Positions 5,438 to 36,412 of a DNA stretch of 36,412 nucleotides are shown here, piece by piece. Position 1 is the first letter of the stretch. Each line of letters starts with the position of its first letter. Made by a program: the position numbers and the translations under genes. The notes beneath the pieces were generated by a model, which saw nothing but the letters and a program-made list of their open reading frames with translations, made no database searches and had not been told where the DNA came from. The DNA is from a virus (lineage: Duplodnaviria; Heunggongvirae; Uroviricota; Caudoviricetes), in IMG/VR virus record IMGVR_UViG_3300043436_004120, positions 64,001 to 100,412 of that record; one strand, written 5' to 3'.

Positions 5438-6021
5438 TACCTTGTTACCTCACGCTGTAGTGTTAGTGTGCCGGACGCAAAAGGTATAACTTCACCACCT
5501 AGCATTAACTCTAAATCATACACAGCAGAAGCAAAGCTAAATAGTGCGGTAACTTCGTCTGGTATAGTTAAGGTAATTGTTTTTACATTGTTATCAAGCA
5601 CAATGCCTGAATTTTCAGTGGTTAGTGTGTGAACTACCACATTAGAAGCTAGCTTTTCACGAATTTGCATGCGTGCGGTATATCCAGCTAAATTAACTGG
5701 CGTGTTGTACTCTAGTACTCCACCACCTGTATAAGCTGTATAAGCCAGTGAGTTTATTTGGTTGAAAACTACCGTGCTGCCGGTAACTTCTGTTGCGGTT
5801 TGATAGTCTAGTTGATTAATTTCTTTCATACCACCAGCATTGGTTACTCGGGCGCGCCAGCCTAGTGGTAGATTATGGCCAGGTGCGGTTATTACCACAG
5901 GTGCGCTTCGGGTAATATTTGTAATTGGAACATATACTTTTGTAGACGATTCCCAACGCAATACTTGACGAAATGTGCTGCCTTGATAAACTTTTAAGTT
6001 TAATTTAATTGGTGCTGCCAT
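5437..6021 (-). CDS. Fibre collar/anchor protein (T5 p132/LtfC-like) with inserted FCCH-like beta module
   Basis: LNLKVYQGSTF...VNLAGYTARMQIR...TITLTIP...AVYDLEL pattern; insert ITNITRSAPVVITAPGHNL. Confidence 0.6.
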   Translation of the reverse strand: MAAPIKLNLKVYQGSTFRQVLRWESSTKVYVPITNITRSAPVVITAPGHNLPLGWRARVTNAGGMKEINQLDYQTATEVTGSTVVFNQINSLAYTAYTGGGVLEYNTPVNLAGYTARMQIREKLASNVVVHTLTTENSGIVLDNNVKTITLTIPDEVTALFSFASAVYDLELMLGGEVIPFASGTLTLQREVTR

Positions 6022-7586: not shown

Positions 7587-10500
7587 TTAATAGCCCTTAA
7601 TTTGATAAGACGTAGTAGACGCAACGGCGGCCCCCGTATTAGAAGTAAAACTGTATATGATCATACTGTTTGGATAAGTACTTACATTACCGCTAGTGTT
7701 TGAGGTAACCATACTAACTGTATATGAGTTTACGCTTATAACGGTTTGTATGATATATAACCCTGAAATACCAGTACCAGTTGTAAAGTACAACCTAACT
7801 TTTTGCCCTGCAACTAATCCGTGATTGGTTGCAGTTATAGTTGCCGTATTAGATGTAACACTATAAGTTCCAGTAATAACTGTGTCTTTAAAATCATACA
7901 CAGAAATTATAGAAGCAGTACTGGTACCAGCTGGAGTAAGAATAATTGATTGTACATCAATAAATTCTGAGTCAAAGTTAACTATTTTTCCGGCTTCTGG
8001 TACTGTTACATAGTTGGCTTCTGATTTCTGCTTAGAGTCTAAACGTATACGAAGATCGCTTATTTTTCGTATACTGCCTAAACTATTTTGAGATACTTCT
8101 ATACGGACTTTGATAAATCTAAAGTTGGTTGCAAATGCGTTACGTGCAGGTATTATACTATATGTAATACCGTCAGTACTAATAGACATAGTAGTAACAC
8201 TTGTTGTGCTACCAGCTACGTCTGTTTCTACGCTATTTAGTGTTATTTGGCTACTAGCTAGTATAGTTCCACAATCAAAAATTTCTTCGTAAAAACCACT
8301 AGAAGTTCCTGGCTGTATAAATATTGGATATCCAGCAGCGACTTGTGCACTAGGCCCTGCCCAACTGCGGGAAGTAAAGTGTGTAGTCCAAGTTTCTGTT
8401 GTATTTACTGGTAAAAATAATTCGCCTGCATAAGATTTAGCATTTGATAGTGTTCCAGTTAGTGGGGATATAAACTCAGCAATAAACTTAAAATCCGGTG
8501 GTTGCGAAACCGTAGCAGGTATCTCTACTGGAGTAGATTCTACACCATCAGTATCTACTGCTGCTAACCAATAAACATAGTCTCCGCCACTTAACTCGCT
8601 TATACTAGTAAATTCTCCACTTTTAGTTCCCAGTACAGTTGCGGTTGCCCACGTACCTGTTGGAGAACTTCTTTTAAGTAATACGTGAGCGATTGGTAAA
8701 CTAGTTTTTGCTCCATTTATCCAATATAACAGTACATTATTGTCAATTATTTGAGCTCTATAATTAGTAACTGGATTAGGGGCTAGTTTAGTAATATTTC
8801 CAGTATATCCACTAGATTTATTTCCTAATATATCTACGGTTTTAACTGTAAATGCCCTATTACCTACCCAGTCTGCTGGTAATGTAATAGTATTGGACTT
8901 AACATTATTTGTTATAGTTTCTAATCCAGAAACATATGTAACTTCATAATATTCTACAGCAAATTGTGTAGGTACTACATCTAACCAACTTAAAATAACT
9001 GTGGCATTAGTTAAAGAAGTATCAAAGTAAGAGTGTTCTAAATTAGTTATATTAGGTACAGCGGATAGCGTGAAAGTAGCGCTACTTGCTAGTACACTAT
9101 AGTTGCCGGAACTGTCTACTGCTTTAATATAATATATTGTTGAAGTATTGCCTGGATACTCTACAAACGTATTTATACTATCGCCTAGAAACAGTCTATT
9201 AGAGTTTGCAAAACTCCACTCACTATTTGCCTTGCGAACTTCATAGGTATAAGTATCTGCTTCAAGATTTGCGTTCCAAGATAGTTTTAACTGACCACTT
9301 GCCTTGTCTGGTACTACAGTAAATCCTGTAACTTGAGCTGGTGGATTGTTTTTTCCAACTACCATATGGTTAGAATAAGCAGTCCATTTACCTGTAGTGC
9401 CAGTACTACTAACATAACGTAAACGTACTCTATACGTTTGCCCTTCTAGTACATCTGGTAAATTAACTGAACCGTTCTGAACAGGCGCTAGAACAGTTTT
9501 TGCACCTACTACTGTTGTTGAATTACTTAACTCATATTCTGCTAGTACATGGGACGTAGTACTTGGTAAGTCGGCACTATTAGTATATGCAACATTAATA
9601 TTATATTTAAATACACCTTTAGACACGTATTCCATTACGGATTCATCACTTACAAACTTTGTTATAGTTGGAATCTTATTTCCAAACGTATTAGACTGTA
9701 ATGTTTGTGGTAAAGATATTTGAGACTCAAATACAGTACTGGCTGTTAGGCTTAAGTAATCTGTAAATATATTGTAGGCTGGTGTTACGCCAGTTGATGT
9801 TACTCCATAATCTACTAAAGTAAGTCTAGCCGTATTATTAGTAGAAGGCTCTATACTCAACACAATTAAGTCTTGCGACTCTTTATTTACTTCCCCAAAT
9901 AAAAATAAGTCACTATTATCAGCTTCAGCTGTAGTTACAGAAGATGTAAGCGTTATAGTACTGTAATACCCATCCTGAAGTACTGTTACCACTTGTCTAG
10001 CTACTGATCCACCTGTTTTGCTTCTAAAACGTACTGTGTAGGTAATACCAGGTTTCATTGGCACTGCTTCATCTAACTCTAATTGAGTAGAAGATATGCG
10101 ATTTTTAACTCTACCACTAGCTAATCCCCACATTGGTACATCATGCATAACTTTTACACGATCACCACGATTACAAACCAAATACTCCAAATCGGTATTT
10201 AGCACGTAAACTTCTGGACGTAATTTCATTTGTGCCATATGCCAGCGCGCATGGTCTATTACCAACGATTTTTTAGTTACTCCAGGTAGTGTAATGCTTT
10301 CAAATAGTGTGGCATTATTAGTACCTTTGCCAATATCATAAACAATAATTTCTGCTTCTTGATAGTCTTGATCTTGGTCGTAGTAAGTAACGCGTAACCC
10401 ATCTGGACGCTTCGGCAACCCTTTGTTACCCTCAAAACCCCAACTATTATGAGGGGTAAAGTGTTGTACTATGTTTGAGCGTGGTTCGTCAATAATTACT

Positions 10501-33168: not shown

Positions 33169-33249
33169 AAACAAAAGTATTCATGACCAAAAATGAATAC
33201 TTTTGTTTTCGGGGCGCCAATTATATCATTATAATTGTGCCCGTGTCAA
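33169..33249 (-). repeat. Early-region repeat, copy D (core present as a 16-bp inverted pair)
   Basis: AAACAAAAGTATTCAT-N8-ATGAATACTTTTGTTT; GGCGCC; ATTATA 33220; TGTCAA 33244-33249. Confidence 0.88.
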
Positions 33250-33334
33250 CATTTATTTATAACATATTTTTTGTAGGGGATTAAAAAACAACACAATTTT
33301 ATGGTATAATTAGGTGTGGGCGCGCCAAAAATTT

Positions 33335-33423
33335 ATGGATACTTTTGTTTGCAAAAATTTCTGTGAACCAAAGCATTACAAGCCTGGCGCCAAAATTATA
33401 CCACACGCCCAAAAAGCTGTCAA
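33335..33423 (-). repeat. Early-region repeat, copy E (core more distant from the promoter)
   Basis: ATGGATACTTTTGTTTGC 33335-33352; GGCGCC 33386; ATTATA 33395; TGTCAA 33418-33423 (17-nt spacer). Confidence 0.75.
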
Positions 33424-33505
33424 TAGGGGTTTATCCCTATGTTGTATTTTCGCAAATTTTAAAAAACACTTGTTTTTTGCCTGTTTTGTCTGTATAATAG
33501 AACAC

Positions 33506-33688
33506 ATGATGAAAACAAAAACCCTTCCAAAAAGTCGTGGCTTTGCCACTGTTGTAAATGGTAAACTTACTGTTTACGTTGGTGCAACTCAGCGTGAAAT
33601 GACTATGAAGTTTTTTAATACTAAAGTAGTCAAGGTAAAATTTGACTATTTGGGGCTTGGACGGGTTGCAAATGTTGAAATTGTGTGA
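33506..33688 (+). CDS. Hypothetical basic protein (60 aa), probably leaderless
   Basis: ATG 7 nt after TATAAT; MMKTKTLPKSRGFATVVNGK...; the longer 33314 start crosses repeat E and is not credible. Confidence 0.6.
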   Translation: MMKTKTLPKSRGFATVVNGKLTVYVGATQREMTMKFFNTKVVKVKFDYLGLGRVANVEIV

Positions 33689-33721
33689 TATAATTGTTTT
33701 TTAACCTGAAAGGAAATCAAA

Positions 33722-34054
33722 ATGGAAAAAGCAACTAAGGCGGTCAACTATACCGCAGAGCAAACCGCTAAAATGGTGGCCGATTATGCGGCTGGTGTCG
33801 CAGTTGAGACAATCGCTGAAAATTTGGGCAAAACCGTTCGTTCGGTTGTGGCTAAACTGTCACGCGAAAAAGTCTACGTGGCTAAAACTTATGTTTCAAA
33901 AACTGGTGCTCCAGTAATCAAAAAGGATGCACACGCTGATGCAATCGGCGCGATTCTCAAATTGTCTGAGAATGAGATCGAAAGTCTTACAAAAGCCAAT
34001 AAAACGGCACTGGAAAAGATTTTCTCAGCATTGGCAAATTCTAAGCCAATCTGA
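33722..34054 (+). CDS. HTH DNA-binding protein, T5 A2-like, paralogue 2
   Basis: GKTVRSVVAKLSREKVYVAKTYVSKTG identical to paralogue 1; own promoter and AAGGA RBS. Confidence 0.7.
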   Translation: MEKATKAVNYTAEQTAKMVADYAAGVAVETIAENLGKTVRSVVAKLSREKVYVAKTYVSKTGAPVIKKDAHADAIGAILKLSENEIESLTKANKTALEKIFSALANSKPI

Positions 34055-34057
34055 TTA

Positions 34058-34076
34058 ATGGGGCATTATGCCCCAT
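34058..34076 (+). terminator. Hairpin / probable terminator
   Basis: ATGGGGCAT-T-ATGCCCCAT followed by TTT. Confidence 0.55.
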
Positions 34077-34101
34077 TTTCCCTTTTTAATCTGGAGATAA
34101 T

Positions 34102-34353
34102 ATGTTTTTTAATTTGCCCTCATTTGCTGATAAACCCGTTGTTCTAACATTTTGCCAATTGGGTATTAATCCCCAAGATTATAATGGTTTGCCATTTGAG
34201 AAAATCAGGCCTGAATATATTAATATCGCGGCGGATTATCTGCTGGATATTACTGGCGATTATGACTATGAGTTATTCGCGCATTATGAATGGGAAATTG
34301 ATTATGTCCAGCGATTAATTAAAATCCCCCGATCAGCATTTGTTCCTGATTAA
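34102..34353 (+). CDS. Hypothetical protein (83 aa)
   Basis: GGAG RBS; clean ORF between two terminators. Confidence 0.65.
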   Translation: MFFNLPSFADKPVVLTFCQLGINPQDYNGLPFEKIRPEYINIAADYLLDITGDYDYELFAHYEWEIDYVQRLIKIPRSAFVPD

Positions 34354-34357
34354 TTTT

Positions 34358-34380
34358 AAAACCCGCATAATGCGGGTTTT
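34358..34380. terminator. Bidirectional intrinsic terminator
   Basis: AAAACCCGCAT-A-ATGCGGGTTTT. Confidence 0.8.
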
Positions 34381-34393
34381 ATTTTGCCCACTA

Positions 34394-34482
34394 ATGTGTA
34401 CTTTTGTTTGCCATGCAAAAATGAATACTTTTGTTTGCAATTTGGCGCCAAAATTATAGCATAGAATTTTAGCCTGTGTCAA
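34394..34482 (-). repeat. Early-region repeat, copy F (two direct cores)
   Basis: ATGTGTACTTTTGTTTGC 34394-34411 and ATGAATACTTTTGTTTGC 34421-34438; GGCGCC; ATTATA 34453; TGTCAA 34477-34482. Confidence 0.88.
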
Positions 34483-34527
34483 GCACTGTTACAAACTGTT
34501 ACAATTGGATGTTGTTTTTTTGCCACC

Positions 34528-34542
34528 TGGCACGATTCTTGC
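34528..34542 (+). promoter_or_regulatory. sigma54 (-24/-12) consensus site
   Basis: TGGCACGATTCTTGC matches TGGCACG-N4-TTGC. Confidence 0.55.
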
Positions 34543-34552
34543 GCCAGCGGCC

Positions 34553-34573
34553 AAATGCGAATCATTATCATTT
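34553..34573. promoter_or_regulatory. Fur-box-like site
   Basis: AAATGCGAATCATTATCATTT; 7-1-7 core TGCGAAT-C-ATTATCA vs consensus TGATAAT-N-ATTATCA. Confidence 0.55.
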
Positions 34574-34590
34574 GCGTTCGCAATTGCGTA

Positions 34591-34638
34591 TATGCTTATA
34601 TAATTATATGCTTATATAATTATATGCTTATATAAGCA
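34591..34638. repeat. AT-rich 16-bp tandem repeat, 3 copies
   Basis: TATGCTTATATAATTA twice, then TATGCTTATATAAGCA; the last copy contains the palindrome TGCTTATATAAGCA. Confidence 0.9.
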
Positions 34639-34649
34639 AATAAGCATAA

Positions 34650-34666
34650 AGCACCATAATGGTGCT
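34650..34666. promoter_or_regulatory. NtrC-box-like palindrome
   Basis: AGCACCATAATGGTGCT matches GCACC-N5-GGTGC. Confidence 0.55.
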
Positions 34667-34752
34667 GCGCCAGTGGAAAACCTTGTCAAGTGCAAAACCT
34701 TGGGCCTCATGCGCCAGTGGCCAATCAAGTGCAAAAACGTAGTGGTTGGTCT

Positions 34753-34787
34753 GCGCCATTATACCAGTGGCCAATCAATTGTGTCAA
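34753..34787 (-). promoter_or_regulatory. Early-region repeat, copy G (antisense promoter only)
   Basis: GCGCC-ATTATA-N18-TGTCAA. Confidence 0.65.
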
Positions 34788-35040: not shown

Positions 35041-35352
35041 ATGATGACTAAAGCAACCCCTCAAAACTACACCCCCGAGCAAACCGTGGAACTCGTCACT
35101 GGCTACCAGTCGGGCAAAACCGTTGAGCAACTGGCCGAGACTCTGGGCAAAACCGTGCGTTCGGTTGTGGCTAAACTGTCGCGCGAAGGCGTGTACGTGG
35201 CCAAGACCAAGGCAACTGGCCAAGCCCGTGTAAAGAAAGCCGAGCTGGTGGACAAACTGGCACTGGCCTGTGGCGTAGCTCCAGAAGTGTTTGAATCGCT
35301 GGAAAAGGCCAATCACGAAGTCTTGGAACGACTTGTTGCCGAACTGGCCTGA
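35041..35352 (+). CDS. HTH DNA-binding protein, T5 A2-like, paralogue 3
   Basis: AAAGGA RBS; LGKTVRSVVAKLSREGVYVAKT...SLEKAN; true start 35041, not 34888. Confidence 0.7.
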   Translation: MMTKATPQNYTPEQTVELVTGYQSGKTVEQLAETLGKTVRSVVAKLSREGVYVAKTKATGQARVKKAELVDKLALACGVAPEVFESLEKANHEVLERLVAELA

Positions 35353-35788
35353 CAGCCACGGTTGAGGGTCAAGAAATTTTAACTTGATGCCTCAGCCCCA
35401 ATTTGATATAATAATATCTTAGAAATTAATAAAGAACCCAGTCGGGAATGGCTTAATGAATACCAAACAACTTTGTTAGTTGGTGCCAGTTCCGCTTCAG
35501 CAGCCCACCTCACTACCCAGCAATTAGATTGCAACTATCTGTGTGGCTAGCCTGCAAGCAACGATTGGAATTTCTTTGTTGATTCTTTTTGTCAAATACT
35601 GTATAATTTATTTATAAATTAGTGAATTGGGTGACAGCGGAGGCGGGACTTATCTGCCATGCGTCTTAATTGTGGGGAATAAATTACCCGAGCCACAGCC
35701 CCAAAGAATTCGGTGTTATGCGACCTCGCCCTATATAGCTAGGATAACAACTTAATTGGCAGAGAAGCTACTGCCAGCCAACTTATGC

Positions 35789-35863
35789 ACTTGATTCGTC
35801 TATCGGCTAGGACACCCGCCTTTCACGCGGACAAGACGGGTTCGATTCCCGTATCAAGTACCA
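35789..35863 (+). tRNA. tRNA-Glu (anticodon UUC)
   Basis: Acceptor ACTTGAT/ATCAAGT, D arm GTC/GAC, anticodon loop CT-TTC-AC, T arm ACGGG-TTCGATT-CCCGT, encoded CCA. Confidence 0.93.
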
Positions 35864-35960
35864 AACAAGGAGAGACAACTCCGTGCCCCTATAAGGCTGT
35901 GCAGAACCTAAACCGTGTTGCTTGCGAAACCCGGCATGATGGTAACAAATAACCACCAAC

Positions 35961-36055
35961 CCTCTGATGAGCACATGCAAGTTGTGCGAAACTCTAAGGC
36001 CCGTACCAGTGTGCGAGTGTTACCCACCACTCCGCTGGCGCGACTTAGGGTCAGG
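35961..36055 (+). ncRNA. Hammerhead-ribozyme-like core (type I topology, very short stem I)
   Basis: CTGATGA; stem II GCACA/TGTGC; GAAA; stem III ACTCTAAG/CTTAGGGT; cleavage triplet GTC (36050-36052); stem I only CCT/AGG. Confidence 0.4.
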
Positions 36056-36412
36056 ACGAAACCCTGAAAGCAATTGTGAAAACTGGAAGTGGCGATCTGT
36101 TGAGCTCCGGCTGATGCAGTGAACTACAGAAACTTAGTAGCTAGCGGAAAGCAAGTAGTACTCCTAGTGAGCAGTTACTATATAAACTGCCGTCTTATCT
36201 GGTACCGACGTAAAATGGTCTTGGTAGACTGGTGCACTGACGTACCCGAGCAATAACAACCCGTAAGGTGGTTCGACCCTAAGTTGCAGAGGGTTCGTAA
36301 AATTATCTAACCGGAGACAACCGTATTAAACACCGACCCCGAACTGCACAGGGGTCACTAAAAATTGTGTGCAGGCGCTAAGCGTTGAAAGCGTAAGCCC
36401 ACCCCAAGCTGT

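Follow-up and report, generated by a model that had tools for sequence, protein, structure and literature searches.

A fixed-order chain of RNA modules around a predicted hammerhead ribozyme in uncultured freshwater T5-like phages

The gene-free end of the DNA stretch analyzed here (the window; 36,412 nt, the final 36.4 kb of a 100,412-nt virus contig) is part of a non-coding RNA unit conserved among uncultured T5-like phages of fresh water, as judged from the sequences of related loci. Comparison of homologs shows the unit to be a chain of modules that keep a fixed order and are predicted to fold independently of one another, with a type I hammerhead ribozyme motif in the middle of the chain. 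The reading that we favor, and hold to be moderately probable, is that of a ribozyme-processed RNA cassette that yields a tRNA and a ~700-nt array of pseudoknots with a 5′-OH end. The unit measures ~1.14 kb from promoter P2 to its terminator, or 1.33 kb when counted from promoter P1 (Table 1). No published description of this RNA family was found in the literature.

The contig has 28 tRNA/tmRNA calls. The genes for terminase, portal, and head are encoded on its minus strand, and immediately upstream of the RNA unit there are two small A2/D5-like DNA-binding genes; from genome size and gene layout the phage reads as T5-like. Its terminase is ~49% identical to the terminases of 112–118-kb Vibrio phages. 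The anchor protein has no match among cultured phages, and no homolog of T5 A1 was recognized among 20 proteins scanned. The DNA runs that contain the stretch are lake and freshwater metagenomes, and a permuted tmRNA of the beta type is a hint that the host may be a betaproteobacterium. This tmRNA lies in the main tRNA cluster (L002:7713–8105), which also holds a 171-nt tRNA-like match with an insertion (2207–2377) and a tRNA-Sec-like match missed by ARAGORN (8798–8885). A third small protein, A2-like by eye and with no PHROG match, is encoded on the minus strand at L001:1637–1948 and, from the opposite flank, points toward the RNA unit. Several perfect TTGACA-17/18-TATAAT promoters at 33220–34787 of the window (minus strand) point backwards between small genes, and a similar backward promoter (L001:1391–1420, minus) is aimed into the terminator of the RNA unit. 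At the far end of the window, an 841-aa ORF (266–2791, minus), in which GTAGTCCA recurs dozens of times at multiples of 12 nt, encodes a low-complexity repeat protein.

A second version of the unit, ~90% identical to that of the window, is found at the start of the contig. The two versions have a 127-nt prefix and a 71-nt suffix in common and differ by indels in variable arms. Since relatives carry a single copy of the unit and the joints at both variable arms are visible in one DNA run, the window end and the contig start are strain alleles at an assembly bubble, and a tandem duplication of the unit was rejected on the same grounds. The alleles lie at window 35575–36412 and L001:1–1000, so that the 100.4-kb total counts the region twice. 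The contig-start allele (allele A) has an extra long hairpin of ~150 nt (L001:128–275; −48.9 kcal/mol) between M1a and M1b, which is missing from the window allele. It also contains an intrinsic terminator (L001:1307–1347), and with this second allele as a guide the unit runs on for ~340 nt past the window edge at 36412, the last position of the interval given in a preliminary description of this DNA.

That description had proposed a giant structured RNA with its own promoter, no ORF, and a nested tRNA, and much of its detail stands. P2 is promoter-like and P1 provides a further promoter of the same kind, while no open reading frame above 57 aa occurs on either strand. The nested tRNA-Glu is found as described, the hairpins at 36006–36038 and 36171–36190 pair with a probability of ~0.9, and the hairpins named ahead of the tRNA are present as parts of two copies of one conserved motif (M1a/M1b). 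The idea of one giant molecule, on the other hand, is unsupported: the helices that covary are local ones, and relatives differ by the exchange, duplication, or loss of modules. The single-sequence folding energy of the region is no better than that of shuffles (z −0.11) and neither whole-region nor sliding-window folding z-scores were informative; the evidence for structure is therefore covariation, not energy.

Table 1. Features of the RNA unit and its surroundings (window coordinates unless stated otherwise).
Feature	Position	Strand	Basis or remark
Small A2/D5-like DNA-binding protein gene, anchor of the locus in relatives	35044..35352	+	PHROG 323 and 1725 matches, E ~1e-6
Promoter P1, sigma70-type, upstream	35384..35412	+	TTGATG-17-TATAAT with TG; TATAAT at equivalent place in homologs
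M0, closed multi-stem motif between P1 and P2	35438..35568	+	Outer and inner stems kept despite varying sequence, >20 homologs; local folding z −2.0; outside the interval of the preliminary description
Promoter P2, predicted start near 35614	35579..35607	+	TTGATT-17-TATAAT; position conserved in homologs
M1a, three-way junction, UUAAUU linker, 3-bp pseudoknot	35629..35701	+	Covariation, 26 sequences
M1b, divergent second copy of M1 motif	35712..35779	+	Two-sided changes in each of its two stems among homologs
tRNA-Glu(UUC), encoded CCA, C-A mismatch atop anticodon stem; optional in family	35789..35863	+	ARAGORN (TTC); Rfam 52 bits
Spacer of ~95 nt between tRNA and hammerhead	35864..35957	+	Found in window, allele A, and L015 only
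Type I hammerhead ribozyme, predicted	35961..36055	+	Core invariant in 32 aligned homologs; covarying stems
Hammerhead stem I	35961-35963/36053-36055	+	
Hammerhead CUGAUGA	35964-35970	+	
Hammerhead stem II	35971-35987	+	
Hammerhead GAAA	35988-35991	+	
Hammerhead long stem III	35991-36051	+	
Hammerhead GUC cut, predicted	between 36052 and 36053	+	
5′ half of predicted ~700-nt 3′ cleavage product, continuing to L001:1307-1347	36053..36412	+	Predicted length 702 nt
RNA-library contig	36063-36370		Depth 9
Variable arm, differing between strain alleles	36068..36143	+	Allele alignment; joint 36085 to 36136 in DNA run X1
RNA-library contig	36078-36412 plus 292 nt beyond		Depth 81; longest, 627 nt
RNA-library contig	36130-36412 plus 169 nt beyond		Depth 343
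PKa, hairpin with UAAAA linker and probable pseudoknot	36191..36229	+	Stem CGTC/GACG, CGCC/GGCG, CGTG/CACG in homologs
M3 copy 1, GACCC hairpin with A-rich linker	36274..36311	+	Contains 3′ arms of the long helices in local fold
M3 copy 2, H-type pseudoknot, 7-bp loop-tail helix	36335..36374	+	Covarying helix

Forty-six distinct loci contain the hammerhead. Across 32 aligned loci its core (CUGANGA, GAAA, and UH in type I order, where N is U or C) is invariant, and the cut-site triplet is GUC in 31 and GUA, an allowed triplet, in the remaining one. In these homologs 91% of cells are paired and 9 of 17 pairs have changed on both sides, a level of covariation reached by none of 500 shuffles and much above that of slid controls. 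Stems II and III both covary, and the conserved bases of loop II, together with an invariant A upstream of stem I, are candidate positions for a tertiary loop II–stem I contact of the kind that allows fast cleavage. These patterns point to a complete type I hammerhead that is probably self-cutting. Rfam Hammerhead_1 (RF00163) gave no match to it, and with Rfam models the only hammerhead signal came from a single homolog (Hammerhead_3, E=0.72), a miss that is probably due to the long stem III. When a hammerhead model was run over the genome, no copy was found besides the window allele and the second allele. Stem I spans 3–4 bp in most loci and 5–6 bp in some, and has changed from UA to AU in two. 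In the window allele it is only 3 bp long, with a ViennaRNA probability of ~0 and a competing CAGG/CCUG hairpin, and cleavage by this allele would need tertiary contacts or cutting during transcription.

Using the upstream anchor gene, 80 related IMG/VR loci were fetched, ~50 of which carry the RNA unit. Their modules follow one stable order: M0, P2, M1a, M1b, an optional tRNA-Glu, the hammerhead, a middle domain, M3, M4, and the terminator. The middle domain and M4 are each one of two alternatives, there are one to three M3 pseudoknots, and the M1 motif (a three-way junction with a pseudoknot) usually occurs in two copies per locus; thus the number and identity of modules vary among relatives and their order is kept. 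In M0, M1, PKa, and M3 alike, pairing is kept through double changes. For M1a, 99.2% of cells are paired in 26 sequences, with five pairs changed on both sides and none of 500 shuffles scoring as high, and its pseudoknot reads CGG/CCG in 32 cases, CAG/CTG in two, and CGA/TCG in one. The loop-tail helix of M3 copy 2 is CTGCACA/TGTGCAG in the window and CTGCTGA/TCAGCAG, AATCGT/ACGATT, AACTGT/ACAGTT, or ACCG/CGGT in homologs. In a first comparison by eye with the twister, twister-sister, pistol, and hatchet layouts, none of M0, M1, PKa, M3, and M4 seems to fit, and none has an Rfam match.

The family seems confined to a T5-like phage clade, because the exact M1a pattern was found in 46 viral stretches and otherwise in one small contig of a metagenome-assembled genome (MAG), the only occurrence across 185,579 prokaryote genomes. 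That 2.9-kb contig, in which the unit lies at L131:1198–1246, is assigned to a Saccharibacteria MAG and is probably a mis-binned phage fragment. A blastn search against 50,697 cultured phage records matched the tRNA and the terminator only. A subgroup of loci (L056, L059, L062–L066, and L069, at ~5650–5830) carries a short unit of another kind, where a hammerhead with a 6-bp stem I directly precedes a terminator-like hairpin. Because of this arrangement in the L056/L059 subgroup, a long 3′ RNA is not the hammerhead's only purpose.

A tRNA is present in 11 distinct loci, where it is always Glu-TTC though divergent in sequence, and is missing from most; the main tRNA cluster of the genome holds another Glu-TTC tRNA. 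Where relatives have the tRNA, its CCA end is mostly found 4–9 nt from the hammerhead core. The predicted cut falls 189 nt past the CCA here and ~95 nt past it in relatives.

The part of the unit downstream of the predicted cut is present in freshwater RNA libraries. Near-identical contigs of it were found in three freshwater metatranscriptomes from two studies, and the longest, if colinear with allele A, would end ~15 nt before the terminator and approach the extent of the predicted 702-nt product. Assembled contigs give neither the ends nor the strand of an RNA, and DNA may be present in RNA libraries. The contigs begin at 36063, 36078, and 36130, with no common place among them, and the upstream part of the unit and the flanking genes are without a contig; we do not count this as proof of cleavage, of which the contigs are a weak hint.

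On the reading favored here, a T5-like freshwater phage would transcribe the ~1.14-kb non-coding unit from the inner end of the gene block that is expressed first. Going by hammerhead chemistry, the ribozyme would cut after C36052, probably during transcription, to leave a 5′ piece with a cyclic phosphate end and a ~700-nt 3′ piece with a 5′-OH start. Host RNase P and 3′ trimming, as in bacterial RNA processing generally, may then free the tRNA-Glu from the 5′ piece. A 5′-OH end makes an RNA resistant to 5′-monophosphate-dependent decay, and this end together with the terminator hairpin could make the 3′ piece long-lived. As to what such an RNA might do, we tentatively propose, by analogy, that the copy-variable pseudoknots act as sponges or decoys that occupy host defence proteins able to bind or cut RNA, with the extra tRNA-Glu as an early spare against tRNA cleavage. 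A bolder version, to which we give rather less credence, would see the unit as an RNA-only accessory island, in which a stable 5′-OH RNA matured by the ribozyme bears interchangeable pseudoknot decoys, each aimed at its own host protein of defence or RNA decay, next to a spare tRNA-Glu, and whose modules are gained and lost like anti-defence genes.

The strongest competitor, although we consider it unlikely, holds that the 3′ product of ~700 nt folds as a whole into a compact ornate RNA that behaves like ROOL or GOLLD, such as a self-assembling cage or scaffold, for which the hammerhead only matures the 5′ end. This product is indeed the part present in RNA libraries, it contains many pseudoknots and A-rich linkers, and cage-forming phage RNAs near tRNAs provide a precedent (10.1101/2024.12.08.627333). 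Its length, however, ranges from ~240 to 720 nt between relatives, with whole domains exchanged. A scan of a 12-sequence subfamily gave covarying helices that are mainly short-range and no convincing long-range covariation, the sole long candidate being an invariant word paired with its own complement; the invariant 10-bp GACCCTAAAC/GTTTAGGGTC pairing that could close a large domain is again this genome-wide word. Because modules come and go, an accessory role in host interaction fits better than a rigid cage.

Long-range pairing is also the basis of a further alternative, in which the unit would be a single uncut giant RNA held together by two helices that keep the hammerhead off or switch it. 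The preliminary description had pointed out a 13-bp helix (36040–36052 with 36275–36287, one G-U) and an 8-bp helix (35958–35965 with 36288–36295); the complementarity is real, and is found in both alleles, but homologs show no compensation that would make it a conserved structure. As the helices use the hammerhead's own strands, the two folds are mutually exclusive. ViennaRNA scores the helices at 0.56–0.63 in the full-length RNA and at 0.82 and 0.98 in 35950–36300, so that they are favored once the 3′ arm has been made and could then trap the window allele in an inactive state, according to this folding model. The ribozyme, however, is complete ~220 nt ahead of the competing arm, and the 3′ arm has a covarying local pseudoknot of its own (M3). 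In six loci (L020, L021, L028, L031, L037, and L043) the hammerhead strand that forms the 5′ arm departs from the word, and it is stem III that compensates, not the downstream arm; most loci have only 8–10 bp of the long helix, from the invariant word. We therefore regard an uncut RNA as improbable.

Both arms of the 13-bp helix are copies of the word GACCCTAA, which occurs in 26 copies in the genome where 1.3–3.9 are expected (order-2 to order-4 Markov models), and for this reason the complementarity of the arms is not special. Within ORFs the word is found 13 times in sense and twice in antisense. As the dispersed word GACCCTAARYTGC (26 copies of the 8-mer, mostly sense within ORFs) it is clustered at C1:616–4209 and at 36045 and 36275 of the window, and the word also flanks terminators after the RNA unit. 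It is likely a protein site at the DNA or RNA level. Trans-cleavage of mRNAs that carry the word was considered and rejected, since the coding copies are mostly of the opposite sense (13 versus 2) and are without stem I partners. The over-representation of GACCCTAA and its clustering at the unit, together with a site at the inner end of a T5-like pre-early block, where T5 has non-coding repeats (10.1101/866236), could be taken to mean that the stretch is mainly a DNA element, either an injection-stop/terminal-repeat region of the T5 type or a cluster of GACCCTAA protein sites, with transcription incidental. We consider this highly improbable: the pseudoknots, hammerhead core, and tRNA are meaningful only as RNA, and covary, the unit has no DnaA-box cluster, and a weak match to T5-like repeats lies 1 kb upstream (~34550–34595) with none at the unit. 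A DNA role of the word is in any case compatible with an RNA unit.

That the unit is a divergent member of GOLLD or ROOL is barely credible in spite of its size, lake phage origin, and nested tRNA, given that cmscan against Rfam, with the sequence beyond the window included, returned only the tRNA in the region and both alleles, at the gathering thresholds and at E<=10 alike, that GOLLD's universally conserved 3′ domain has no counterpart in a 3′ part that swaps domains and varies from ~240 to 720 nt, and that GOLLD is not described as containing a hammerhead. At genome scale, GOLLD (RF02032) likewise had no match at E<=10 in a scan run with no known-positive genome as control, and ROOL (RF03087) had none in region, alleles, or genome, the control genomes of the genome scan being silent too. 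Neither in the genome nor in relatives did the models of GOLLD, ROOL, or Hammerhead_1 score above the cut-off. Of the two options offered in the preliminary description, a GOLLD member or a new class of large non-coding RNA, GOLLD membership thus falls away, and an undescribed large structured phage RNA with a nested tRNA stands.

The family brings together two subjects, the long non-coding RNAs of phages (GOLLD/ROOL type) and the phage hammerhead. It supplies at least four RNA motifs that are absent from Rfam as well as a hammerhead subtype that current models miss, and its dozens of natural variants, in which modules are added, dropped, or swapped, lend themselves to easy module-by-module tests.

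The pre-early block of T5 has at its inner end a non-coding repeat region of 1662 bp (10.1101/866236), and the unit resembles this Repeat Region 3/injection stop in being a long gene-free stretch with repeats at the same place. Whereas the T5 injection stop has paired DnaA boxes in inverted repeats, the unit has one DnaA-type box, no cluster, and no sequence match. A weak blastn match (E 0.1–0.5) located at ~34550–34595 of the window involves 215 records of phages, the majority from Escherichia, Salmonella, and Klebsiella; it adjoins three tandem GCTTATATAATTATAT-type repeats, ~1 kb upstream of the unit, where it marks a candidate injection-stop-like block.

The small H-type pseudoknots, A-rich linkers, and one to three tandem copies of variable number are reminiscent of type III antitoxins and pseudo-ToxI (PMC5086642; PMC3475682), the latter being phage pseudoknot repeats that act as decoys (PMC5086642). 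Type III antitoxins consist of tandem near-identical 34–36-nt repeats, unlike the one to three divergent M3 copies and the several unrelated module types seen here; no type III antitoxin in Rfam matched the region and no toxin is known for the unit, so that the likeness is an analogy only. Theta ribozymes, which are HDV-like and cut at most 5 nt from a tRNA 3′ end (Kienbeck et al., 2024; PMC10879173), also place a self-cleaving ribozyme, here a predicted one, 3′ of a phage tRNA gene. In the present family the core is that of a hammerhead, the cut would fall ~95–190 nt downstream of the tRNA, and most loci have the ribozyme with no tRNA.

Hammerheads of bacteria and prophages cut long polycistronic RNAs (Perreault et al., 2011; PMC3088659), and the type I representatives among them share with the one described here the full core, three stems, a GUC/GUA site, type I order, and an intergenic setting in phages. 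They differ from it in that the present motif has a 3-bp stem I in most loci, a stem III of 50–60 nt, and a conserved 7-nt loop II of the UGNAA type, is missed by the Rfam models, and lies inside a long non-coding unit instead of flanking a protein gene. GOLLD and ROOL, phage RNAs located close to tRNAs, assemble into cages, and GOLLD can accommodate both a 5′ part that varies and a tRNA in its linker (10.1101/2024.12.08.627333). The GOLLD cage is a 14-mer. The resemblance to GOLLD (~800 nt, phage-borne, a tRNA beside or inside) is a trait common to other RNAs and is not diagnostic, and with both families the unit shares large size, carriage by phages, association with tRNAs, and pseudoknots. 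Unlike them it lacks both a global fold kept across the family and a fixed 3′ domain; its modules shuffle, a self-cleaving ribozyme is predicted within it, and its position is next to the pre-early block and apart from the main tRNA cluster.
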